Source of the DNA: Candidatus Sulfotelmatobacter sp.
GTDB lineage: Bacteria > Acidobacteriota > Terriglobia > Terriglobales > Acidobacteriaceae
Length of the DNA: 64,000 nucleotides
NCBI GenBank assembly: GCA_030041415.1
Contig: JASHNX010000014.1
Location: 14,161-78,160 of the forward strand
Direction: 5' to 3'
This document shows positions 3,127 to 60,071 of this stretch, one piece after another (within the stretch, counting starts at the first letter, position 1; the number at the start of each line of letters is the position of its first letter). The position numbers were made by a program, and so were the translations under genes. Under the pieces are notes generated by a model, which had not been told where the DNA came from, searched no databases, and saw only the letters and a list, made by a program, of their open reading frames with translations.

Positions 3127-4077
3127 TCACACGCCTCCTGCCATGGAACCAGCGGTGGTTTCGGCGTGGCGCAGTTTTTCGACGAAATAGGTTTCGAGTG
3201 AAGTGCGTACGGGAGTAACCGAGACCAGGCGGAGCCGCTCGCGGCGCAGAGCGTCGATGACTGCATCCTGATGCTTTTCATCGAGAATAGCGCGAACCTT
3301 GTCGGCGGTGACATGGCATTCCGCACCGAGCGCCTTGATCGAAGCTGGAATCTGGGCGCCCTGCCAGATGACTTCCACTTTGCCGCGAACACTCGACGTC
3401 AGATCATCAACGGCGCCGGCGCGCAAAACTTCTCCCTTGTGAATGATGGCAACGCGGTCACAGAGGGCTTCGGCATCGGACAGGATATGCGTGGAGAAGA
3501 ATACGGTTTTGCCTTCTCGCTTGAGTTGCTCCATAAGATCGCGGACTTCGCGGCGTCCCATGGGATCGAGGCCGGACATGGGCTCATCGAAGAAGACGAG
3601 CTTGGGATCGTGGAGAATCGCCTGGGCGATGCCGACGCGTTGCAGCATGCCTTTCGAGAACTTGCGCAAGTGCACGCCCTGCACATCGCGCAAGCCCACC
3701 TGGTGTAAAACCTGCTCGATCCGGTGCCTGCGGTGCTTGCCGGGCACGCCAGAAAGCTGGCCGTAGTATTCGAGCAATTCGTGCGCGGTGAGGTAATCGT
3801 AGAAGTAGGGTTGCTCGGGAAGGAAGCCGATCTGGGCCTTGACCGCTGGGTCGGTCCATTCGCGGCCGAGGATGCGGGCGGAGCCTGAGGTGGGGAAAAT
3901 CAGTCCCATGAGCAGTTTCAGGGTTGTGGTTTTTCCGGCTCCGTTAGGTCCGAGAAAGCCGAAAATCTCCCCATCTTCCACCTGGAGATGAAGCGGGCGG
4001 AGGGCCTGCTTCGGCCTCTTGCGCCAAAAGCCCACCTGATAGGTTTTTTCCAGTCCCAAAATCTCGATGGAAGGCAT
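3127..4077 (-). CDS. ABC transporter ATP-binding protein
   Basis: Walker [11 protein letters not shown], signature-like FSKGMLQRV, Walker [14 protein letters not shown]-loop STHIL. The track start at 4095 is a TTG. The ATG at 4077 ([13 protein letters not shown]) is preferred, but the start is uncertain by 6 codons. Confidence 0.9.
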
Positions 4078-13490: not shown

Positions 13491-14663
13491 TCAAGCGTCG
13501 GCTTTGATCAGCAGGCAGGTTACATCGTCGTGCTGCGGAGTTGAGCCGACGAAGAGATCGAGGCTGGCCATGAGGCGGTCGAGCATTTCTTTTGGCGTTG
13601 CTGACGCGTTTGCACCGAGCAGTGCGATGACACGCGATTCTTCGTACTCTTCCTGACGCGCGTTTTCCGCTTCTACCAGACCATCCGTAAAAATAATCAG
13701 CCAATCGCCGGGCGCGAGAGTGACGCTTGCGGAATCGTATTTGGCCGAGGCCAGAATGCCGAGCGGCAAGCCGCCAACGTCGAGACGCTCGATCGCCCCG
13801 GATGCGCGACGGACGATCGGATTGTTGTGGCCGGCATTGATGTAAGTGAAGACGCGGCGGGCCGTGTCGTACTCGGCGAGAAACGCGGTGGTGAAGCGCA
13901 CTCCGCCCTGACTGTTTGTGCAGGAGTATTTGTTCATGTTGGCGACGAGTTCGGGCAGGGCGACGTCGGCGCTGGAAAGGGTTTTGAGACTGGCCTGAAG
14001 GGTTGCCATGAGCATGGCGGCAGGAATGCTTTTGCCGGCCACGTCGGCGACGGCGAAGACGACGCGGTTTTCATCGCTGGTTTTGCCGGGGCGCGGGAAG
14101 ACGTCGTAGTAGTCCCCGGCAACGGTGTTGGCGGGGCGAGTGGCGTAAGCGATCGAGATGCCGGGAATCTGCGGAGGAGCTCCGGGCAGCAGCCAGGTTT
14201 GAATCTCACGCGCAATCTGCAGATCGCGCTTCATGACTACGCGATCGGCGATCTCCAGCATGAGAAGAAGAAAGAGGAGCAGACCACCCCAGAAATGAAA
14301 ATCGAATTCGATGACGTGAGCGTGCTCGCCCGAGCCGTAGCTGAACCCTCCGCTGGGAAGCACCAGCAAAACCAGCGCTGCCAGCAAAATGACGCGGCGG
14401 GCGGGCGAAAGTTTTTCAATCACCGCCCAGAAGAACTCTTTGACAAGATGCAGGCCTCGTCCGCGGCGGGTAAGGCCTTCGGGAGTTTTGGCGACGACCT
14501 CCCGCGAATAGAGGCGATAACTGGCACGGGCTTCGGTTTCAAACTGCGACCAGAGTTGCGTGAGCTCCATGCCTTCGGTGACTCTGCGCCAGAAAATCTG
14601 CCAGCGTACGCGCCAGGGAAGATGCTGTGGAACGGCAGGCAGAGATGGAGGAGTTGTCGCCAT
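13491..14663 (-). CDS. membrane-anchored PP2C/SpoIIE-family serine phosphatase
   Basis: Two TM segments (VILLAALVLLVLP, GGLLLFLLLMLEI) are followed by IAREIQTWLLP, VAGDYYDVF, FAVADVAGKSIPAAMLMATLQ and IFTDGLVEAEN. This is the SpoIIE/RsbU-type PP2C signature. Confidence 0.85.
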   Translation of the reverse strand: MATTPPSLPAVPQHLPWRVRWQIFWRRVTEGMELTQLWSQFETEARASYRLYSREVVAKTPEGLTRRGRGLHLVKEFFWAVIEKLSPARRVILLAALVLLVLPSGGFSYGSGEHAHVIEFDFHFWGGLLLFLLLMLEIADRVVMKRDLQIAREIQTWLLPGAPPQIPGISIAYATRPANTVAGDYYDVFPRPGKTSDENRVVFAVADVAGKSIPAAMLMATLQASLKTLSSADVALPELVANMNKYSCTNSQGGVRFTTAFLAEYDTARRVFTYINAGHNNPIVRRASGAIERLDVGGLPLGILASAKYDSASVTLAPGDWLIIFTDGLVEAENARQEEYEESRVIALLGANASATPKEMLDRLMASLDLFVGSTPQHDDVTCLLIKADA

Positions 14664-21672: not shown

Positions 21673-22203
21673 TCACTTCTTTTTCGGCTGCGACGTTGCG
21701 AACAAAGATGAGCCAATCAAGAAATGACCTTCCGCTTCATCCGACAATTCGAGATGCATTCGCTGATAGCTGAAGTTCAGACGCAGGTAGTACGTTTTTC
21801 CGGCCTCGGCGGTCAAGTGCATCGCTTCCCCAACGCGCTCGGACGACTTCTTGAAGGTTCCTGACTGCCATTCTGTGCAAATGTTGTGCTCCCCCGGGCC
21901 AACCTGGAAAAAGAAGTACGACTTCCCATCATTCGCTCCCACCCAATTTCCGTCTACTCCGACACGCATGGTAGGCGCGTTGACAAAGTCGACAAAAAAG
22001 TACACCAAAGCCTTGTCTGGTTCCTGTTGGCCAACAGGATGTTTCAGGTCCGTCGTCTGCACGTTGAACATCTGTCCGCTGGGGCCGCATCCTGCCCCTG
22101 TTCGGGCCGCAGCCGCGTCATCCTGCGGTACAGCCGGATCAGCCAGAACTAGCGACGCCCCGAGAAAAATGATCGAGCATAGAACGCGCCAGCGCGCTCT
22201 CAT
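21673..22203 (-). CDS. secreted DUF2846-like protein (paralog of 51460..52005)
   Basis: Signal peptide MRARWRVLCSIIFLGASLVLA. The core is RVGVDGNWVGANDGKSYFFFQVGPGEHNICTEWQS...AEAGKTYYLR. Confidence 0.6.
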   Translation of the reverse strand: MRARWRVLCSIIFLGASLVLADPAVPQDDAAAARTGAGCGPSGQMFNVQTTDLKHPVGQQEPDKALVYFFVDFVNAPTMRVGVDGNWVGANDGKSYFFFQVGPGEHNICTEWQSGTFKKSSERVGEAMHLTAEAGKTYYLRLNFSYQRMHLELSDEAEGHFLIGSSLFATSQPKKK

Positions 22204-22223
22204 CGTATGACTTCCTGTAACGC

Positions 22224-22394
22224 CTATTTGAGCTTTACGAACAGTAGAACGAAGATAGCCCATACTCCGACGGTGACGGGAAACTGCACCACTGCCGCAT
22301 CGCGCATGCCAGCGCCCCTAGGCAGCGCGTAGGTGAGCAACATCATGGCCAGGGCTGTGAGCACGCCGAGAATCAGTTTGCTTTTCCACTGCAT
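22224..22394 (-). CDS. small hypothetical membrane protein (56 aa)
   Basis: MQWKSKLILGVLTALAMMLLTYAL...VTVGVWAIFVLLFVKLK has two hydrophobic helices, with GAGG upstream of the ATG at 22394. Support is weak. Confidence 0.3.
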   Translation of the reverse strand: MQWKSKLILGVLTALAMMLLTYALPRGAGMRDAAVVQFPVTVGVWAIFVLLFVKLK

Positions 22395-22898: not shown

Positions 22899-23546
22899 AT
22901 GCGTCGACTTCGTTTTGCTGTGAATTTAATCGTATTTCTCGCGGTCATGGCTTTGGGCACGGGTACAGCCCTGGCCAATTCGACGGTTAGTGTGAAGCTG
23001 ACCGGAGTGGGCGGCAACAACGCCGGAGGCGTTTATACCTATCCGTACTATTTGTCGATCAACGGCGCGGCACCGGTCGCCGTCATTTGCGACACGTATG
23101 ACAACGAGGTCATGGTTGGCGAGACCTGGAAGGCTTACAAGACCAGCCTGTTGAGCGGCTTGGGCATGTTCGGAAACGAATTGACCGATTACAAAGCCGC
23201 GGGGCTGATTTTTAAGAGCATTCTGAGTGGAGGCTTGAGCGCGAACGCCGGCAACTTTGCAATCTGGGGATTGTTCTCGAGCAATGCGCAGCACAGTTCG
23301 TACTTCCAGAGCAGCGGAGCGGCGGCGATCGAAACAGAATATCTGGCGCTGGCGAAAACGGCGCCGAATAGCGCGTTTGCGGGACTGTTTCTTTACACTC
23401 CGATTCCGGGGACGCAGAGCTGCGGCGGCACGGCGCAGGAATACATTGGATACTCTCCTGTGCCGGAGCCGGGATCGCTGGTTCTGTTCGGCACGGGCCT
23501 GATTTCTCTGGCGGGAGTGGTGCGCCGGAAAATTCTGAAAGCGTAA
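22899..23546 (+). CDS. PEP-CTERM sorting-domain protein
   Basis: N-terminal signal peptide MRRLRFAVNLIVFLAVMALGTGTALA. The C-terminal VPEPGSLVLFGTGLISLAGVVRRKILKA has the PEP motif, a TM helix and a basic tail. Confidence 0.85.
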   Translation: MRRLRFAVNLIVFLAVMALGTGTALANSTVSVKLTGVGGNNAGGVYTYPYYLSINGAAPVAVICDTYDNEVMVGETWKAYKTSLLSGLGMFGNELTDYKAAGLIFKSILSGGLSANAGNFAIWGLFSSNAQHSSYFQSSGAAAIETEYLALAKTAPNSAFAGLFLYTPIPGTQSCGGTAQEYIGYSPVPEPGSLVLFGTGLISLAGVVRRKILKA

Positions 23547-28762: not shown

Positions 28763-29734
28763 ATGCAGGCTTCCGAAGCGAATGCGCGCGTGGTCTCTGG
28801 CTTTCTCGATTATCTACGAATCGAGAAGGGATTAGCCCCTCTTTCGGTGAGCGCCTACCAAACCGACATTTTGCAGTTTTCTGAATTCCTCGAAAAGCGA
28901 AAACGATTGTTGCTTACAGCTAAGCAGGCAGACGTGCGCGATTTTTTGCAACAACTTTTTTCTCATCGCGTCGAGGGCCGCAGCGTGGGACGGAAGCTTT
29001 CGGCGTTGCGGCATTTGTATCGGTATCTGCTGCTGGATGAAAAAATCGAGCGGGATCCGACTTTGAATATCGAATCGCCGAAGCAATGGAAAGTTTTGCC
29101 AAAGGCGCTGGCGCGCGATGAGATGGAGGCGACGCTGACGGCTCCACTGACAAGGCGGAACGCCGATGCGGGCGATCGGCACGATGCAACTGCGCTCGCC
29201 GCACGCGATGCTGCGATGCTGGAAGTGTTCTATGCCGGAGCGTTGCGGGTCTCGGAGATCATCAACGCGAAACTGGAAGACCTGAAGCTGGATGCCGGAT
29301 ACATGCTGGTGCGCGGCAAAGGAGACAAAGAACGGGTGGTGCCGCTGGGAAAATCGGCGCAGGATGCGCTGACGAAATATCTGGATCAATCGCGTGGGGC
29401 GCTGATTGCGGGAAAACATGCAGTGGAACCGGGGAAAACAGAAACGCGCAATCGGCCTCTGCTGTTTGTTGCTCGCGGCGGGCACAAGCTGACGCGGCAG
29501 CGGGTCTGGCAAATGGTGCGGGCGGCGTCCGCAGCTTCGGGGCGAAAGGCTTCTCCGCACATGCTGCGTCATTCCTGCGCGACTCACATGGTAGAAAATG
29601 GCGCGGATCTGCGCACCGTGCAGACAATTCTCGGACACGCAGATATTTCGACCACGCAGGTCTATACACACCTCGCGTTAGATCGGCTGCGCACGGTTTA
29701 TCAAAAGCATCATCCGCGAGCGAGGGCAAGATGA
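28763..29734 (+). CDS. tyrosine site-specific recombinase, XerC/XerD family (XerD-like)
   Basis: An N-terminal SAM-like core-binding domain ([22 protein letters not shown]) is followed by catalytic [45 protein letters not shown]. This gives the R..HxxR..Y tetrad. Confidence 0.8.
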
Positions 29735-30633
29735 AATCGGATACCGTGGTGGCAAAAGCGGTGAAAGATTTCCTGCGCCACCTGGGCGAGCGCAACGCTT
29801 CGCCGCACACGATCAAAGCGTATAAGGGGGATCTCGCGCTGTTTGCCGGTTACGCGGGTTCGCGCGGGTGGAAGCAGATTGATCACATCGTTGTGCGCGG
29901 ATTTTTGTCACAGCTTTATGAGAAAGGTTTGAGCAAAACTTCTGTGGCGAGAGCGCTGGCGGCGGTGCGATCGCTGTATCGGTGGCTGGCGCGGGAGGGA
30001 GTTGTGGAGCAGAATCCGGCGAAGCTGGTGGCGACGCCGAAGCTGCCAAAGAAATTGCCGCGTGTGCCCACGATTGAAGAAATGAATTCTGTGATTGATG
30101 GAGGAATGCCGGAGATTGCGGCATTTCCCGAGCGAGACCGATTGATGTTTGAACTGCTCTACGGATGCGGGATACGCAATTCGGAGCTGACGGGAATTAA
30201 TCTTGACGACATCCGCTTAAGCGCCGAAGCGATTCTGATTCGCGGCAAGGGAAAAAAAGAACGCTACGTGCCGTTTGGCGAGTCAGTGAAGTCGGCGCTG
30301 GCGGCGTATCTTCCGGAGCGGCAGAAAGTTTTGGGTGTGAAGGGAAAAAGTTCGGCATCGCTGCTCATCAACCGGCGCGGAGGAAGGCTGACCACCCGCA
30401 GCGTGGGGCGAATTGTGAAGCGGATTGCGGTTGCCAAAGGATTGTCTCCGGATGTGCATCCGCATACGCTGCGGCATGCGTTTGGAACGCATATGCTCGA
30501 GGAAGGGGCCGATTTGCGCGCGATTCAAGAGTTGCTCGGGCACGAGCGGCTGGCGACCACGCAACGTTACACGCAGCTCTCGATGAAGCATGTGTTACAG
30601 GTTTACGACCAGACGCACCCGCGCGCGAAATAA
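29731..30633 (+). CDS. tyrosine site-specific recombinase, XerC/XerD family (XerC-like)
   Basis: [29 protein letters not shown] and [39 protein letters not shown]. The ATG overlaps the upstream stop (ATGA at 29731..29734). Confidence 0.8.
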
Positions 30634-30635
30634 GC

Positions 30636-33482
30636 TTAGTGCGAGCCTCGGTCTGCATTTTGAGCGTCTTCCATCTCGGAAGCATCAGTTCGCAGTGCTT
30701 GCCACATCGCGACCACGCGCCTCTTTAGTTCCGCCGTTAGTTTTTCGTAAGCCGATTCCGATGCTTCACTTTGAGGAGGGGGAATGACCGGATCACCGAA
30801 CACGATCTTCAATGGCTTGAACCCCTGAAACGATTTGTTGCGCGGCCATGCTTCGTAGAATCCTTCAATCGCGATCGGAACAATTGGAACCTGCATGTTT
30901 ATGGACAGGATGGCCGCGCCTTTTTTGAAAATCTTCGGCGTGCCATCAATCGAGCGTTCGCCTTCCGGATAAAGAATGAGCGGGCGGCCCTGGCGCAAAC
31001 CGAACGCGGAGGCGCGCATGGCGGGCACGAGATTCGAGTCGGGATCGACGACGACCAAACGCAGGCTGCCGGCCAGACCACGCATGAATCCTTCGCCGAA
31101 AATCTCGCTCGTGCCGACGGCAAAAACCTTTTTGAAGACGGGCGGAGGGAGACTGCTGGCGAGCACAATGGGATCGAGATAGCTCTGATGATTGGAGCAG
31201 AGAATGTAGGCACCGGTTTGGGGCAGCTTCTCGACGCCGAAGATGCGCAGATGGAAGCGATCGAGTGCAATGAGTTGAACGATGCGCGAGACCACGTACC
31301 AGAATGTGCCGTAAACCGGATGCGGCCGAGCGAGCGGAGCGACATCGGCGGGGTCGGCGGGTTCGGCGAAAACTGTTTTCCACCCAGCGAAAGCGGCGGT
31401 TGTGGCGGGAGTTGCTCCGGCCGAGGCGCTTTGCAGAATGGCATCGACCAAGTCGCGAACAGTGTAGATTTCGGCGAGTTGCGATTCAGAGACATTGCCA
31501 CCGAGTTGTTGCTCAATCTGGCTGAGCAGTTCGATGCGCTGCATGGAGTCGAGACCGAGATCGAGTTCGAGATTGTGAGACGGGTGCAAGGATGACGGCG
31601 GCTTGCCTGTTTCTGCGCCAAGAAGGCTGAGCGCTCGTTGCACATCGGGATGATCGAGCCAGGACTGTTCATCAGCGGTCAGCGGACTTTCGCTGGGCAA
31701 CTCGGAATCGTCAGCCGCATCATGCGCCGAATTGGTTTTGACGCGTTTCTCGACTTCGAAGCGTTTGATTTTTCGCGTAGTGGTGCGAGGCAAATCTTCC
31801 TGCCAGATCTCATAACTGCCGATGCGTTTGGTCGACGCGATCTGCTGCGAAAGGCTTTCGATATCGAAGCGGATAACTTCCTTCGCGTTTACGATCTTCT
31901 TTTGGCGGAGCACATCGAAGTTGGGCACGATCACCGCGTGCAAGCGATCGCCTTCTCCGGACTTGCCTTCGAGGCCGACGACGGCGAGTTCTTTGATGTA
32001 GGGGGATTTCAGATAGTGAGCTTCCACTTCTTCGGGATAGATGTTTTTTCCGTTGCTGAGAACGATGACTTCTTTCTTGCGCCCGGTCAGGAAAAGATTG
32101 CCGTCAGAGTCGAAGTATCCGAGATCGCCGGTATGGAACCAACCGTCGCGAAGAACTGCAGCGGTTGCATCGGGACGGTTCCAGTAACCTTTCATGACCA
32201 CGCCGCCACGCAAGGCGATTTCGCCAGAGGCCGGAGAGTTTTCTTCGGACTCTAGGTCGAGTGTGGCCGCGTCGACAATTTTCGCCTCGACGCCTTTCAT
32301 CGCTTTGCCGACCGAACCGATGACGTTACTCGACGGTGAGTTCGCAAAAACTGCTGCAGTGGTTTCGGTGAGGCCATACGCCTGCAGGACATCGATGCCC
32401 ATAGCATATAAATCGGTAGCGATGGCGGGATCGAAACGTGAGCCTCCAGTGACGAGATAACGCATTTTCTTGCCGAAGATACCGTGGACTTTGCCAAATA
32501 AGATCGGGCCGGCATTCACACCAAACTTTCGCAATCCGCGGTTCAAGTTCATGAGCACGCGCAGCAGGGTTTGCGCGACCGCACCTCGCTTGGCCACTTC
32601 CTCAAAGATGCGCTGATGAATCAGATAAAAAAACTGCGGCACTACAGCGAACGCGGTGATGTTGCGCTCCTGCAAGGCGCGAAGCAGTTGCGTGGTATTG
32701 AGAGTTTCGAGATAGCAGACGCGCGCGCCTTTCACCAGAGGCAACATCAGATTGGCCATGAGCGCGAGAACGTGAAACATGGGCAGCACGCCAAGCAGGG
32801 CATCGGCAGGACCGAGGTCGACCCAATTGAAAACGGCTTCCACTTCGGCGAGAAGGTTGGCGTGGGTGAGCATGACACCCTTAGGATCGGCCGTGGTGCC
32901 GGAGGTGTAGAGCAAAGCGGCGAGGTCACTGGACTCGACGGGGACACGCTGAAGATCTTGCGGCCCGCGTTCGAAGATTGTTGCGAGAGTTGCGAGCCAA
33001 TTTGATTGCGCGGCGGGTGAATGCATGTGCTCGGAATCCATGAGCACGAGACCCACATTTGATCCTGCGACCGCCTTTCGCGAGACCTCGGCGTGGCGCG
33101 AATCGCAGAATAGAACGGAAGCACCGCTATCGTTCAGCAGACGTGCCAGCTGATCTGCATGAAGCGCAGTGTCGAGGGGAACGGCGGCGCATCCGGCCGC
33201 GATGATGCCGAGAAACGTGGCGACCCATCGCGGATCGTTGTCGGCGAGAATGGCAAGGCGCGATCCCCGAGGAAATCCCTTTTCGCCGATCCAGCGGGCA
33301 ACTGCTTCGGCCATCCTGCGTAATTCGGCATACGTGCAGCAGTCTTGTGCATCGCCGGTGGGACTCTTGCGGTCGTGGCGAGAGTTGGGCTCATGGCCGC
33401 GGTCCTGACGCTGAATTTCGAGGGCGATGTTGTTGGGCCAGCGCTCCGCGCACTCGATAAAACGGGCATAAAATGTGGGCAT
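30636..33482 (-). CDS. tri-domain fusion: acyl-AMP/acyl-CoA ligase, acyl carrier domain, 1-acylglycerol-3-phosphate (PlsC-type) acyltransferase
   Basis: The adenylation domain has [21 protein letters not shown] and [41 protein letters not shown]. The phosphopantetheine site is [13 protein letters not shown]. The acyltransferase has HX4D ([10 protein letters not shown]) and [10 protein letters not shown]. Confidence 0.85.
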
Positions 33483-38652: not shown

Positions 38653-38867
38653 CCCGGAAAAGCGATGATTGTACACCGGTGGTGGGAGGGAAGCTCGGAC
38701 GATGTTTGGGGCAGCGTGCAGTTTGATAAGGAAGCGAGCCAAGCGCGCGAGTAATGCGGCGCAAAGGGCGCGCCGCAAGGCGCGGCTCGCCCAGGTCCTT
38801 CGCTGCGCAAAATAGGCTTGCTCAGGATGACAAGCAAGCTGAACCACTACGGGCGCGTCCGGAGTGA

Positions 38868-39878
38868 TTAACTGAACGTTGGCAGCTTGACCAGATCGTT
38901 TTCGGGGACGGGTTCGACCGGTTCCCCGGCTTTGCGCCAGGCGGTCAAGCCGCCGACGATCACGAACGTGTTAAATCCTTTTTCCCGCAGCATGTGCGCC
39001 ACACGGGCGCTGGTGGCTTCGCGCGCTCAAGTACAGTACAGATAGATGTCGTTGTCTTTGGGAAGGTTTTTGATTTCTTCCTCGAGATTGTTGGGCTCGA
39101 TGCGAATTGAATTCTTGATGCGGGCGGCGCCGCCATCGTAATAACCATGGCTGCGCACGTCGACAATCTGCACGCGGTCGGAGCCTTCAGAAGCCAAACG
39201 CCTCGCCAGTTCCTCAACCTGGATGCGGGGTACGATGCTATACATTCGGTTCTTGTAATATTGCCCAACGCGATATGCCGCATAGACGGCGAGCGTTATC
39301 AAGACAACGGCTTCCATAGCTTCGCTCGCTGCATGAAATCCGCGCAGGACCGCGGCGAGAAAATCGCGCGAAAGATAGCCAACTGAAAAATAGGTCACGG
39401 AATAAACCAACGCTCCCAGAAAGTCGAGACGAAGAAACTGCTCGAGACGCATCTTCATGCTTCCGGCGAGCGGCGCAGCCATGGTATTTACGCCGGGGAT
39501 GAATTTGGCAACGATCAGCGTGAGTTTCCCGCGCTTGTAGAACGACTCAGCCGAGCGAAGAATGCATGTTTCCGGATTGATGGAAACCCGGCAGAGAAAC
39601 CCCAGCAGTGCCCAGCCCATGTAGCGGCCCAGAAAGAATTGAATGGTATCGCCGAGGAGCAGTGCAACAATCGCCGCGAACAGAACATAAGGTCCCCACA
39701 AGGCGTGAGAAGCAACAGCGGCGCCTGCGGCCACCAGCGCGAGGGCAGCGGGAAAGGGGAGACCGATGGCCTCGATCAATAACAGGCCGAAAGTGAAGGC
39801 GTAGCCATGACGAAGCATGAGTGCCACAAGAGTCATAAGGAGTGTTGGATAAGAGAATACGGGAAAGGGTTCAAACAT
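38868..39878 (-). CDS. DedA-family membrane domain fused to a C-terminal rhodanese domain; contains one in-frame TGA (39027..39029) in the rhodanese active-site loop, so it is a candidate selenocysteine codon (alternative: nonsense pseudogene)
   Basis: The track ORF 39027..39878 ends ...NLPKDNDIYLYCT-TGA. The same frame continues without a stop for 52 codons (AREATSARVAHMLREKGFNTFVIVGGLTAWRKAGEPVEPVPENDLVKLPTFS, TAA at 38868..38870), which completes a rhodanese fold. The N-terminal 200 aa are DedA-like (GYAFTFGLLLIEAIGLPFPAAL). Confidence 0.6.
38996..39010 (-). promoter_or_regulatory. candidate bacterial SECIS-like hairpin downstream of the in-frame TGA
   Basis: The minus-strand RNA is GCGCC-CGUGU-GGCGC, a 5-bp GC stem with a 5-nt loop containing GU, at +17 to +31 nt after the UGA. 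Weaker flanking pairings are possible (CAGC/GCUG). Confidence 0.35.
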
Positions 39879-39883
39879 AACAA

Positions 39884-39914
39884 AGCCGGATATCTGCTGA
39901 GAGCAGATCCGGCT
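39884..39914 (-). terminator. terminator-like hairpin plus U-tract immediately upstream of the DedA-rhodanese ATG (possible attenuator)
   Basis: The minus strand reads AGCCGGAUCUGCU-CUC-AGCAGAU(AU)CCGGCU followed by UUGUU, then AUG at 39878. A second 8-bp hairpin (ACGGGGAG...CUCCCCGU) lies at 39921..39953. Confidence 0.4.
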
Positions 39915-40320
39915 CTGTTTACGGGGAGTCCGTGCCAGGAGAACTCTCCCCGTGCAGGGTGAGAGAACCAGTAGCAGCTCTTACTCGAAGTCTCTAGCCC
40001 TGTGCGGGCCGACGCGTCGTCTTTGTTGACGCTTGTTGTAAAGCTTCGACTAAAGCTGCCACACCCTTGGCGATACGCCTCGCGGACCGGTCTCCCTGCG
40101 ACTCAGATTCGGGTGCCGGGAGGAGATTGGGTCGATCGCGTCCTGCGATTCCCTCGCATGCTTCAATGCGTCTCGTAAGCCTTCCGCCGGCGACACATTG
40201 CCAACAATGCAATTCTGAACCGCTGGTTCGAAGAAATCAGTGGCGCGGATCACAAGGCGGAGTGATGGAGATCATATGGAATGGGAATCTCGCGGCGGAG
40301 TTCATGGAAGCGAGCGGCAG

Positions 40321-51459: not shown

Positions 51460-52005
51460 CTAGTTTGCAACGCGCGAAACTCTGAACGCCGACGACTGCA
51501 CCAGGTATTTGCCCTCGTCAGGATTGACCTGGTCGAGATCGAGCGAAAAGCTCGATCCGCCGTTTGTGCCTCCATGCTCGGTGATTCGTGCTCGGAAGTA
51601 ATAGCTGTGCCCAGCTTCGGCGGTAAAGCCGGCGAAGGCAGCCTTCTTCGAGTAGGTCTTGAATACCGACTGCCAATTGGCGCACAGGTGGTGCTCGCCG
51701 GGATCGACCGTGAATGCAAAGTATGAATTGCCTTTATTCGCTCCAACCCAGGTCCCGTCCATTCCGATGCGCAGGGTGGGGCGGGCCAGTTGGTTCGGCA
51801 CCCTATCAAAGACTTCGATCACGTACACCTGGCTCTTGTTCACCTCCGGAGTGATCGCTGGAGCTGCGGCAGTCTGTGTATCGAAATGTGAAGTGGCTGG
51901 ACCGCAAGCCGACAGAGCCGGTTGGTCTCGAGCAGGTTGGCCTTGGGCGATAGTCAAGCCGCAATTACAAACGACGAGGCAGATTACAACGAGAGTGGCT
52001 CGCAT
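51460..52005 (-). CDS. secreted DUF2846-like protein (paralog of 21673..22203)
   Basis: ATG at 52005 is preceded by GGGAGGA. Signal peptide MRATLVVICLVVCNCGLTIAQG. The core is RIGMDGTWVGANKGNSYFAFTVDPGEHHLCANWQS...AEAGHSYYFR. Confidence 0.6.
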   Translation of the reverse strand: MRATLVVICLVVCNCGLTIAQGQPARDQPALSACGPATSHFDTQTAAAPAITPEVNKSQVYVIEVFDRVPNQLARPTLRIGMDGTWVGANKGNSYFAFTVDPGEHHLCANWQSVFKTYSKKAAFAGFTAEAGHSYYFRARITEHGGTNGGSSFSLDLDQVNPDEGKYLVQSSAFRVSRVAN

Positions 52006-52133
52006 AGCTGTCCTCCCGCCGGTGGCTGCCGCTGCCATCACGGCAGACTGGCTAATCCATAGGATAGCTGGACCACGTCAAGGGATGTATAAAGTCGGTC
52101 AAGTTCGGTAAAAAGGGAGCTGAATCGGCGCGA

Positions 52134-57812: not shown

Positions 57813-60071
57813 ATGAGACGTCTGAAGCCCGCGGCGATACTGCTGCTGGTGCTGCTTGTGATTGTGCCCACCCTCGCCTCCGATAAGGCCAAAAAGCTAT
57901 ATGACAAGGGCCAGGATGCCGAGGCGCGGCAGAGCTATGTGGAGGCATATCAGTTTTACAAGCAGGCCTACGACCTGAAACCCAAGGACTTACGCTACCG
58001 GTCTTCGTTCGAGCGGCTGCGCTTTCAGGCCGCAGCGTCCATTGTTCATGACGGGCAAAAACTACGCGATCAGGGCAAGCTGCAGGAAGCCGCAGCTGAG
58101 TTCGAAAGGGCAATCCAGATAGACCCCTCATTGTTCATCGCGCAGCAGGAATTGAAGCAGACGCTGCAAATGATCAACGATGCGACGAATCCGCCGCCGC
58201 AGGCCGCTGGCCCGCCCAATAACTTGGAGCGGAGAATCAAAGATGCCGGCGGTCCCGTCGAGCTTGCACCGATCTCGAACGTTCCCATCACAGTCAAGCT
58301 GACGGAAGATTCCAAAGTCATTTATCAGACGATCGGGCAGTTGGCCGGGATCAACGTTCTGTTCGATCCCGATTACACTTCGCGACGCATCAAGGTTGAA
58401 TTGAACGGAGTCACGCTGGAGCAGGCGTTGGAGATTTCCGCGCTGGAGTCGAAGACCTTCTGGCGGCCGGTGACGAGCAACACAATTTTCGTAGCCCAGG
58501 ATAATCCGGCGAAGCGCAAAGAGCTGGAGCAGAGCGTTCTTAAGACATTCTATTTATCGAATCTTTCGCAGCCCACCGAACTTCAGGATGTAGTGAACGC
58601 GATTCGCGCTGTGCTCGACGTGCAGCGCGTGCAGCAATTGCTTTCGCAGAACGCGCTGGTGGTCCGCGGCACTCCCGACCAGATCGCTCTGGCGGAGAAA
58701 CTGGTGGATGATCTGGACAAGGCGCGGCCGGAGGTCATCGTCGACATCGCGGTGTTGCAGATCAGTCGCGACCGATCCCGCACTCTGGGAATCAGTCCTC
58801 CCACCAACGGCATCAGCGTGAGTCTGCAGAGCAATATCAACACCAGCACGACCACGAGTACCACCACTGGAACGACGACTCCGGCTACTTCGGGGACGGG
58901 ACTTGAACTGAATACGCTCGGCAATCTGAACGCCACCGATTTCCAGGTAAGCATTCCTTCCACGAATCTCTCCGCCATCATGGGTGACAGCGATACGAAG
59001 ATGCTGCAGAACCCGCAGGTCCGCGCTCTGGATAATCAGAAAGCCACGCTCAAGATCGGTGAGCGCGTGCCAGTGGCTACCGGATCGTTTCAGCCGGGCA
59101 TTGGCGGTGTCGGCATTAATCCGCTGGTCAACACACAATTTCAGTATCTCGATGTGGGCGTCAACATCGATGTGACTCCGCACGTGCACGCCGACCGAGA
59201 AGTGACGCTGAAGATCACGATGGAAATTTCGTCGGTGGTCGGACAGTCAAGCATCGGCGGAATCAGCCAGCCCATCATTGGACAGAAAAAAATCGAGCAT
59301 GAAATCCGGCTGTCGGATGGAGAATCCAGCCTGATTGGCGGCATCTTCGACGATTCGCAAACCCGATCACTGAGCGGCATCCCCGGGCTGGCGCAGATTC
59401 CCATCATCAAATACCTGTTCGGGCAGGAACAGACGGATAAAGAGCAGGACGAAACCGTCTTTGCCATTACGCCTCACGTAGTGCGGGGAACCGAGATTTC
59501 GGCGATGAATCAGCGCGCCATCGATATTGGAACGGCGAATGCGATTCAGTTGCGGGAAGTCATTCCTCCAGCGCCACCAAAAGGCCCGTCGGTTCCGGCT
59601 AATCCCGCGTCGCCCGCTGCTCCGGCAAATCAGAATCCGCCTTCTGGCGTGAATCCTTCGGCGAATTTCATGTTTGATCCCGGCGTGATCACGGCCGTCA
59701 AGGGCAAGACCTTCGCCGTGAACTTGCAAATCTCGGGGGCGAAGAACGTTTATTCGATTCCGGTGCAGATCAACTATGACCCTTCGAAACTGCAGTTGGT
59801 CAATGTATCGAACGGGAACTTTCTCTCGCAGGATGGGCAGACGGTGGCTTTAGTGCATCGCGAAGATGACACGCTCGGCAATTTGCAGGTTACCGCCAGC
59901 CGCCCGCCGGGTTCGGGCGGAGTTTCGGGCGGAGGGACAGTGGTGACGTTAACTTTTGAAGCCAAGGCCAGCGGACAAACTCCCCTGACGATTACGCGGG
60001 GCGGGGCACGCGATCCGGGATTGCAGGCTATCGCGGTGAACGGAGCACAGGCATCAGTAACCGTGCAGTAA
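57813..60071 (+). CDS. secretin (GspD/PilQ family) with N-terminal TPR-like region and C-terminal cohesin-like domain
   Basis: Signal peptide MRRLKPAAILLLVLLVIVPTLA. TPR-like helices follow (AKKLYDKGQDAEARQSYVEAYQFYKQAYDLKP, GKLQEAAAEFERAIQIDP). N-domains contain VTLEQALEISALESKTFW. The secretin core has NPQVRALDNQKATLKIGERVPV, IGGIFDD, SGIPGLAQIPIIKYLFG and ETVFAITPHVV. The last 135 aa are cohesin-like (FAVNLQISGAKNVYSIPVQINYDPSKLQLVNVSNGNFL...VVTLTFEAKASG). Confidence 0.85.
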   Translation: MRRLKPAAILLLVLLVIVPTLASDKAKKLYDKGQDAEARQSYVEAYQFYKQAYDLKPKDLRYRSSFERLRFQAAASIVHDGQKLRDQGKLQEAAAEFERAIQIDPSLFIAQQELKQTLQMINDATNPPPQAAGPPNNLERRIKDAGGPVELAPISNVPITVKLTEDSKVIYQTIGQLAGINVLFDPDYTSRRIKVELNGVTLEQALEISALESKTFWRPVTSNTIFVAQDNPAKRKELEQSVLKTFYLSNLSQPTELQDVVNAIRAVLDVQRVQQLLSQNALVVRGTPDQIALAEKLVDDLDKARPEVIVDIAVLQISRDRSRTLGISPPTNGISVSLQSNINTSTTTSTTTGTTTPATSGTGLELNTLGNLNATDFQVSIPSTNLSAIMGDSDTKMLQNPQVRALDNQKATLKIGERVPVATGSFQPGIGGVGINPLVNTQFQYLDVGVNIDVTPHVHADREVTLKITMEISSVVGQSSIGGISQPIIGQKKIEHEIRLSDGESSLIGGIFDDSQTRSLSGIPGLAQIPIIKYLFGQEQTDKEQDETVFAITPHVVRGTEISAMNQRAIDIGTANAIQLREVIPPAPPKGPSVPANPASPAAPANQNPPSGVNPSANFMFDPGVITAVKGKTFAVNLQISGAKNVYSIPVQINYDPSKLQLVNVSNGNFLSQDGQTVALVHREDDTLGNLQVTASRPPGSGGVSGGGTVVTLTFEAKASGQTPLTITRGGARDPGLQAIAVNGAQASVTVQ

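Follow-up and report, generated by a model that had tools for sequence, protein, structure and literature searches.

An in-frame UGA at the catalytic position of a DedA-fused rhodanese from Candidatus Sulfotelmatobacter, a probable selenocysteine codon at which the protein is cut in annotation

The gene described here lies on the minus strand of a 64-kb stretch of DNA from Candidatus Sulfotelmatobacter sp. (64,000 nucleotides, positions 14,161 to 78,160 of contig JASHNX010000014.1, assembly GCA_030041415.1), referred to below as the window. Its annotated open reading frame (ORF), 39878..39027, encodes 283 amino acids with the end ...KDNDIYLYCT and is closed by a TGA (39029..39027), past which 52 more codons stay open in the same frame (AREATSARVAHMLREKGFNTFVIVGGLTAWRKAGEPVEPVPENDLVKLPTFS) up to a TAA at 38870..38868. 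This anatomy had been reported in a preliminary description of the DNA, which took the gene for a DedA-rhodanese selenoprotein split by ORF calling, and it was confirmed here. Comparison with related sequences indicates that the UGA is a real, strongly conserved recoding site. It almost certainly stands for selenocysteine (Sec), in the catalytic place of a rhodanese domain that is joined to a DedA membrane domain. The overall explanation that fits best, and that we hold to be highly probable, is a 336-residue membrane protein in which UGA 284 would be read as Sec by means of a hairpin on its 3′ side. The features of the gene, in window coordinates, are the following.

38868..39878, minus strand: predicted read-through coding sequence (CDS) of the DedA-rhodanese selenoprotein, 336 codons, putative Sec at codon 284, TAA at 38868..38870
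39375..39752, minus strand: DedA/VTT membrane domain, residues 43-168 (PF09335, 44.3 bits against a threshold of 33.9)
38931..39215, minus strand: single rhodanese domain, residues 222-316 (PF00581, 46.6 bits, threshold 22.2), split by the TGA in the ORF as annotated
39027..39029, minus strand: in-frame TGA, codon 284, putative Sec in the active-site loop U-A-R-E-A-T-S (from conservation, Cys orthologues and alignments)
39033..39035, minus strand: Cys282 codon (TGT), C-x-U partner and candidate resolving Cys, invariant in all homologues
38996..39010, minus strand: apical hairpin GCGCC-CGUGU-GGCGC of a putative bacterial selenocysteine insertion sequence (SECIS), 17-31 nucleotides (nt) past the UGA
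38967..39032, minus strand: stretch with reduced synonymous change, codons -1 to +20 (from third-position conservation and the proportion of synonymous differences, pS)
39023..39020 with 38989..38986, minus strand: possible clade-specific lower stem, CGCG paired with UGCG (RNAalifold consensus of the clade)
38806..38839, minus strand: terminator-like hairpin, a 9-bp stem followed by CTATTTTG, 29 nt past the TAA stop

For the Pfam scan of the read-through product the TGA was written as Cys. The product matches VTT_dom at residues 43-168 and, at residues 222-316, the Rhodanese profile (positions 3-101 of 102), a complete domain that straddles the TGA at codon 284, which bears out the earlier claim that the extension is the missing C-terminal part of a rhodanese. 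The open extension of 52 codons is not significant by itself, because several other TGA-terminated ORFs in the window are followed by stop-free extensions of 47 to 78 codons; since such lengths are not rare, it is homology and conservation that carry the case. Of the 51 likely genes of the window, 16 end normally at a TGA, one of them being the minus-strand ORF of 322 amino acids that ends at 3127..3129, the example already given in the preliminary description, and a general change of the code is therefore not involved.

The codon is conserved far beyond this contig. A search over 5.8 billion proteins returned, among the best 120 clusters, 97 that end exactly at ...YC[TS], 22 that are full length with Cys as the next residue (YCT-C-[AVIT]R[ED]ATSA...) and 1 with Arg. 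Genome loci were then taken one each from 80 GTDB species, nearly all of them Ca. Sulfotelmatobacter or Acidobacteriaceae metagenome-assembled genomes (MAGs); TGA stands at codon 284 after ...YCT in 80 of 80, and the conserved frame continues downstream in every one, a single locus running off its contig. A second scan, made with divergent members from a 50%-identity representative search and with targeted metagenome contigs, gave 80 soil-metagenome loci that belong to a clade plainly distinct from the first and show the motif YC[TSN]-x-P[NS]E[AV][ST]SAR, where the codon is TGA in 73 and TGC or TGT in 7, so that the Sec form outnumbers the Cys form in both sets. Two further divergent lineages in unrelated neighbourhoods (L092 and L093, see below) also have TGA. 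For the total of 156 TGA loci, the frame runs for at least 38 codons to a stop in 149 and off the contig in 7; none is shorter.

A sequencing or assembly error, or a nonsense mutation peculiar to one strain, is hardly conceivable for a codon found identically in 156 independent assemblies from different projects and technologies. Single-base variants at this codon do occur: in L086 (ENA contig k141_1189220, 1261 bp; homologue P0002) it is CGA (Arg), with the hairpin and the preceding ACT intact. This CGA is one T-to-C step away from TGA and could reflect a sequence error, a polymorphism or an allele that is dead.

Selection on the two sides of the TGA was compared within the window's clade by the Nei-Gojobori proportions of synonymous (pS) and nonsynonymous (pN) differences, with the following values.

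200 upstream codons: pS 0.607, pN 0.088, pN/pS 0.145
Codons +1..+16: pS 0.169, pN 0.014, pN/pS 0.082
Codons +17..+36: pS 0.512, pN 0.016, pN/pS 0.032
Codons +37..+52: pS 0.671, pN 0.125, pN/pS 0.187

Given the low downstream pN/pS and the kept frame, the part behind the TGA is translated and under selection, and on this ground we consider sequencing error, a pseudogene and true termination to be excluded. The last of these would make the gene product a 283-residue DedA protein followed by a decaying rhodanese remnant or by a separate small ORF. Gene callers and the NCBI annotation do treat the TGA as a stop, under the name 'VTT domain-containing protein', and an in-frame GTG at 39002 could start an ORF of 44 amino acids downstream of it. 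However, purifying selection is stronger on the 52 codons past the TGA than on those before it (pN/pS 0.03 at +17..+36), the frame is lost in 0 of the 149 complete TGA loci, a stop at this codon would break off the rhodanese fold halfway through the active-site loop, and the Cys orthologues are uninterrupted, leaving true termination a very small chance. Decayed copies in relatives, which had been named beforehand as a sign of a pseudogene, were absent from the same 149 loci. We also noticed that nothing comparable to the terminator-like hairpin behind the TAA follows the TGA. One long-read MAG (L015) has the C-terminus ...VPAERSGEIADV in place of ...VPENDLVKLPTFS over the last ~12 read-through codons before the stop, which looks like the effect of a one-base indel near the 3′ end.

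Cys codons at the TGA column were found in 14 loci at the DNA level. The Cys-form genes occupy the same gene neighbourhood as the window gene, and the two forms are orthologous to each other; the signature of the fused family at large is Y-C-x-C/U-P-N-E, with C-x-C in the Cys forms. The preliminary description had proposed that orthologues be compared for Cys or TGA at this column and for an uninterrupted C-terminus, and the comparison came out in its favour, with full-length Cys forms in 22 of the best 120 clusters.

The TGA column coincides with that of the catalytic Cys in characterized rhodaneses. The sequence of E. coli GlpE (taken from NC_000913.3) aligns gap-free through the active site, with Cys65 on codon 284, Val63, which sits in a β-strand, on Cys282, and Ser71 on Ser290. 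A gapless phmmer alignment with domain 1 of the Francisella rhodanese 6mxv has the same register (C-G-G-G-F-R-S against U-A-R-E-A-T-S), and because the two alignments agree in this way, Sec284 would stand at the position of the catalytic nucleophile. Two ways of anchoring the TGA had been offered before. The first counted 17 residues from the TGA to GF and 25 to GGLTAW and put the TGA at the catalytic Cys; it agrees with both alignments and with the spacings measured here from U284, 17 residues to G301-F302 and 25 to G309. The second took the C of YLYC as the canonical Cys, and does not hold: a catalytic Cys282 followed by a two-residue insertion was rejected, as the gapless GlpE and 6mxv alignments and the identical 17-residue spacing to G-[FY] favour U284. 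As judged from the aligned homologues, Cys282 is a further Cys, conserved without exception, that precedes the predicted Sec284 by two residues, forming a C-x-U motif. The AlphaFold model of the Cys homologue P0003 (pLDDT, predicted local distance difference test, 77.9) has the strand, six-residue loop and helix as expected, the strand ending at the first Cys and the loop itself being of low confidence. A fold search gave rhodaneses at probability 1.00, solely single-domain rhodaneses and the rhodanese domains of persulfide reductases.

A second constraint, at the nucleotide level, is seen directly behind the UGA. Third-codon-position conservation is 0.67 upstream, 0.92 at codons +1..+15 and then about 0.66-0.75, and pS drops 3.6-fold over the hairpin region, from 0.607 to 0.169 (codons +1..+16). 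The conserved core hairpin, GCGCC-CGKGU-GGCGC, lies at +17..+31 past the UGA (39010..38996 in the window) and is invariant in 79 clade sequences except at loop position 3. Across 129 unique Sec-form sequences from both deep clades its five pairs are 98.4-100 % canonical and the loop reads [C/A]G[G/U]G[U/C]. Codons +6 (AGC) and +7 (GCC) are identical in 155 of 155 TGA loci, whereas in the Cys loci they are free to vary, and the hairpin is fully paired in 151 of 155 TGA loci versus 2 of 14 Cys loci (Fisher p = 2e-13). Two TGT Cys forms, L106 and L107 (Ga0209859_1000709 and Ga0209853_1000655), retain all five GCGCC/GGCGC pairs around a changed loop, CGGAC, and the Cys forms L085 and L088 keep 4 of the 5 pairs; all four look like recent Sec-to-Cys conversions carrying fossil SECIS elements.

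Under the bSECISearch criteria the apical loop should lie 16-37 nt from the UGA and carry a G at one of its first two positions; in the window the loop begins 21 nt past the UGA and has G at its second position. The window hairpin shares with bacterial SECIS elements, of which that of E. coli fdhF is an example, the small size, the place inside the CDS with the apical loop about 21 nt past the UGA, and G residues in the loop; we take its sequence to be unrelated to that of fdhF. In position and size the putative element fits the bacterial SECIS elements described so far, which are stem-loops directly 3′ of the UGA that bind SelB (PMC9312934). Acidobacteria as a phylum include known Sec users (PMC1794560). 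With TGA in 156 loci, Cys orthologues, purifying selection downstream and a hairpin specific to UGA, the selenocysteine reading put forward in the preliminary description is supported.

Several results weigh against this reading. No selA, selB, selD or tRNA-Sec was detected in the 64-kb window (ARAGORN, Rfam and Pfam on about 50 genes), tblastn with E. coli SelA, SelB and SelD gave no match in 1.57 Mb made up of the window and 88 loci, and no tRNA was reported by ARAGORN in 60 related loci (L001-L060); the Sec machinery genes are not linked to the DedA-rhodanese gene. The gene neighbourhood is a housekeeping one that is not kept in divergent lineages and gives no direct clue to substrate or function. 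No compensatory pair change in the hairpin was found by RNAalifold on the 79 sequences or by pair counts on the 129 unique ones, where the pair changes consist of two G-C to G-U changes and three mismatches; compensatory changes are lacking because the 5′ arm never varies. The 76-nt region is no more stable than shuffled sequence (z = +1.28), a thermodynamic test that is uninformative for so small an element, and the lower stem of the window's clade is not common to the divergent clade. The hairpin has no match to an Rfam family, and the putative structure draws its support from conservation and from its link to UGA rather than from covariation.

The same evidence can be turned toward recoding of the UGA to something other than Sec, by a SelC*-type tRNA-Cys with a UCA anticodon acting through SelB, or by an acidobacterial allo-tRNA suppressor, either of which would insert Cys or another residue. 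Such tRNAs exist, allo-tRNAs having been reported in Acidobacteria (PMC5389517), and a conserved UGA, a hairpin and Cys orthologues would look identical in that case. We nevertheless find it distinctly unlikely. SelC* tRNA-Cys genes have been reported in Firmicutes, Thermodesulfobacteria, Nitrospirae and Proteobacteria but not in Acidobacteria, the closest curated relative of the rhodanese part is a selenoprotein family (NF041203), and keeping a UGA and a hairpin across 156 loci just for Cys has no obvious gain over a TGC codon.

Among the NCBIfam models, that of this family (NF041203, rhodanese_LYCAU, rhodanese-related (seleno)protein) gives the best match to all fused forms that were scored, Sec and Cys alike. 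The score is 86.2 bits for the window protein and 79-92 bits for the fused forms, all below the 115-bit cutoff, so the rhodanese domain is a close relative of the family and not a member by the curated test. The active-site motif of NF041203 is present, as L-Y-C-T-U in the window protein and V-Y-C-A-U in L092, with the putative Sec at the catalytic column, the Cys two residues before it and the rhodanese fold in common. The architecture differs: NF041203 proteins are stand-alone, of ~126 residues, with Ala in C-x-U, whereas in the window protein the domain makes up residues 211-323 of a 336-residue fusion, behind a ~200-residue N-terminal DedA/VTT domain, and has Thr at that place. Prokaryotic selenoproteome reviews include this 'CxU' form among the Sec rhodaneses (example TKB26178.1; PMC13188914, PMC9312934), and a UxU variant is described from Olavius symbionts (PMC1976440). 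TsoB (NF045694) is a rhodanese/DsbD fusion selenoprotein (PMC13188914) and thus resembles the window protein in having a Sec-containing rhodanese domain fused to a membrane protein, but its membrane partner is DsbD-like and its motif is UxxxxU with two Sec residues; NF045694 gave a single match of 21 bits, to one divergent family member. GlpE, PspE, Francisella 6mxv and Wolinella Sud share the fold, the catalytic column and the six-residue loop into a helix (C65..S71 of GlpE corresponding to U284..S290), and differ in being soluble, with a Cys nucleophile that is not preceded by another Cys at -2.

Rhodanese selenoproteins of the C-x-U type that combine an in-frame UGA with a hairpin on its 3′ side are already known as a kind, which takes away part of the novelty claimed in the preliminary description; the part that stands is the DedA fusion. 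Among the papers searched, none combines selenoprotein, rhodanese and DedA, those naming both selenoprotein and DedA describe no such fusion, none links Sulfotelmatobacter with selenocysteine, and the 2026 prokaryotic selenoproteome review has no mention of DedA, VTT, SNARE or Acidobacteria. What appears to be undescribed is the DedA-fused architecture, the dominance of Sec over the Cys form in soil Acidobacteriota and the systematic mis-annotation.

The membrane part passes the Pfam threshold of its family. Matches to the NCBIfam DedA and UptA equivalogs are weak, and the UptA equivalogs NF052604 and NF052605 score 28-43 bits against cutoffs of 250 or 300 bits. In an alignment with E. coli YqjA, E39 and R130 of YqjA are kept as E36 and K125, and D51 and R136 are replaced by Ala and Asn; we take all four YqjA residues to be functionally important. 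The likeness to YqjA and UptA lies in an N-terminal domain matching PF09335 with the E39 and R130 equivalents kept, as opposed to the missing rhodanese domain in those proteins, a UptA equivalog score of 43 versus 300 bits and the loss of YqjA D51 and R136 (for YqjA and UptA, see PMC11474028, PMC12893004). DedA proteins, now under active study as lipid-carrier flippases, have been shown to flip undecaprenyl phosphate and phospholipids (PMC11474028, PMC12893004, PMC10193950), and a Ralstonia metallidurans DedA mutant has been linked to selenite uptake, according to a citation in PMC11422209.

Around the gene are found MetRS, TatD, YajQ, a polyprenyl synthetase, in some loci an MFS protein, CYTH, and SecA on the opposite strand. 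The adjacent polyprenyl synthetase gene is kept in 77 of 88 clade loci and is given little weight because it does not occur near the gene in either of the two divergent lineages. These are L092 (Logan SRR22388346) and L093 (JGI 3300048539), divergent Sec forms with VYCA-U-PNE and MYCT-U-PNE; one neighbourhood has a peptidase M48 and an epimerase, the other a proline dehydrogenase, a Thi4-like gene and PolX. As these surroundings are unrelated, the family is not bound to a single operon setting. In 58 of 89 sequences a small signal-peptide protein (97-116 amino acids, no Pfam match) is encoded between the polyprenyl synthetase and the DedA-rhodanese gene (for example L081:9105-9446, L083:556-849 and L085:517-867), and it is absent from the 442-bp spacer 39879..40320 of the window.

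Elsewhere in the window, a second in-frame-TGA candidate, the plus-strand ORFs 30771-31595 and 31638-32255 in one frame with a single TGA between them, was rejected, both being antisense shadows of a 948-residue minus-strand gene at 30636..33482. The plus-strand ORF 32571-33005 is a third shadow of that gene, and all three ORFs are without a Pfam match. The 948-residue gene is syntenic with an AMP-binding/PP-binding/acyltransferase gene in L081, and at its end it overlaps SecA at the TTG predicted as the SecA start (33345), a start that has probably been placed too early. On the plus strand, 28763..29734 and 29731..30633 are a tandem pair of tyrosine-recombinase genes (XerC/D-like) with a 4-nt overlap. 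A 752-residue protein at 57813..60071 (plus strand) has the unusual combination of TPR repeats, a secretin and a C-terminal cohesin. The window also encodes two paralogous DUF2846 proteins, at 21673..22263 and 51460..52041 (both minus strand), and a PEP-CTERM protein at 22899..23546.

We propose that 39878..38868 (minus strand) encodes one inner-membrane protein of 336 residues rather than one of 283, in which a transporter-type DedA/VTT domain at the N-terminus is connected by a long helix to a single rhodanese domain at the C-terminus. The UGA at codon 284 would be decoded as selenocysteine, and the G+C-rich hairpin 17-31 nt past it would act as a bacterial SECIS, recruiting SelB with Sec-tRNA(Sec) to the UGA. 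Conservation of codon, frame and hairpin is plain in the alignments, and it is from this that we infer the binding of SelB to the hairpin. For the chemistry, a tentative proposal that we rate at somewhat below even chances is that Sec284 would serve as a nucleophile that takes a sulfane sulfur or a selenium atom, or attacks an oxidised substrate, with Cys282 resolving the Sec284 adduct through a selenenyl-sulfide. The fused domain would then be a membrane-tethered chalcogen-transfer or redox module that acts on, or regulates, whatever the DedA domain moves. A more specific and rather improbable extension is a transport-coupled selenium/sulfur relay, in which the DedA domain would import or flip selenite, thiosulfate, polysulfide or a lipid-linked intermediate and the tethered Sec/Cys rhodanese would capture or reduce it covalently at the membrane face. 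If true, such a relay would give a mechanistic basis to the long-noted and unexplained link between DedA and selenite uptake, and would define an abundant, unannotated selenoprotein of soil Acidobacteriota.

The selenoprotein reading has consequences for annotation as well as for the organisms. Gene callers and the NCBI pipeline cut the protein at this probable Sec codon, and the genomes and metagenome contigs of soil bacteria concerned number well above a hundred. In the best 120 clusters, the 97 that are cut here bear no other name than 'VTT domain-containing protein' or 'DedA'; a protein widespread in soil bacteria is therefore without its active site in the databases. The rhodanese selenoproteins would gain a membrane-anchored architecture, one in which the Sec form, unusually, outnumbers the Cys form. 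The finding would further imply that Ca. Sulfotelmatobacter-like Acidobacteriota of peat and soil decode Sec, and the fused redox or sulfur-transfer domain may offer a concrete and testable way into the question of what is transported or sensed by one subfamily of DedA proteins.

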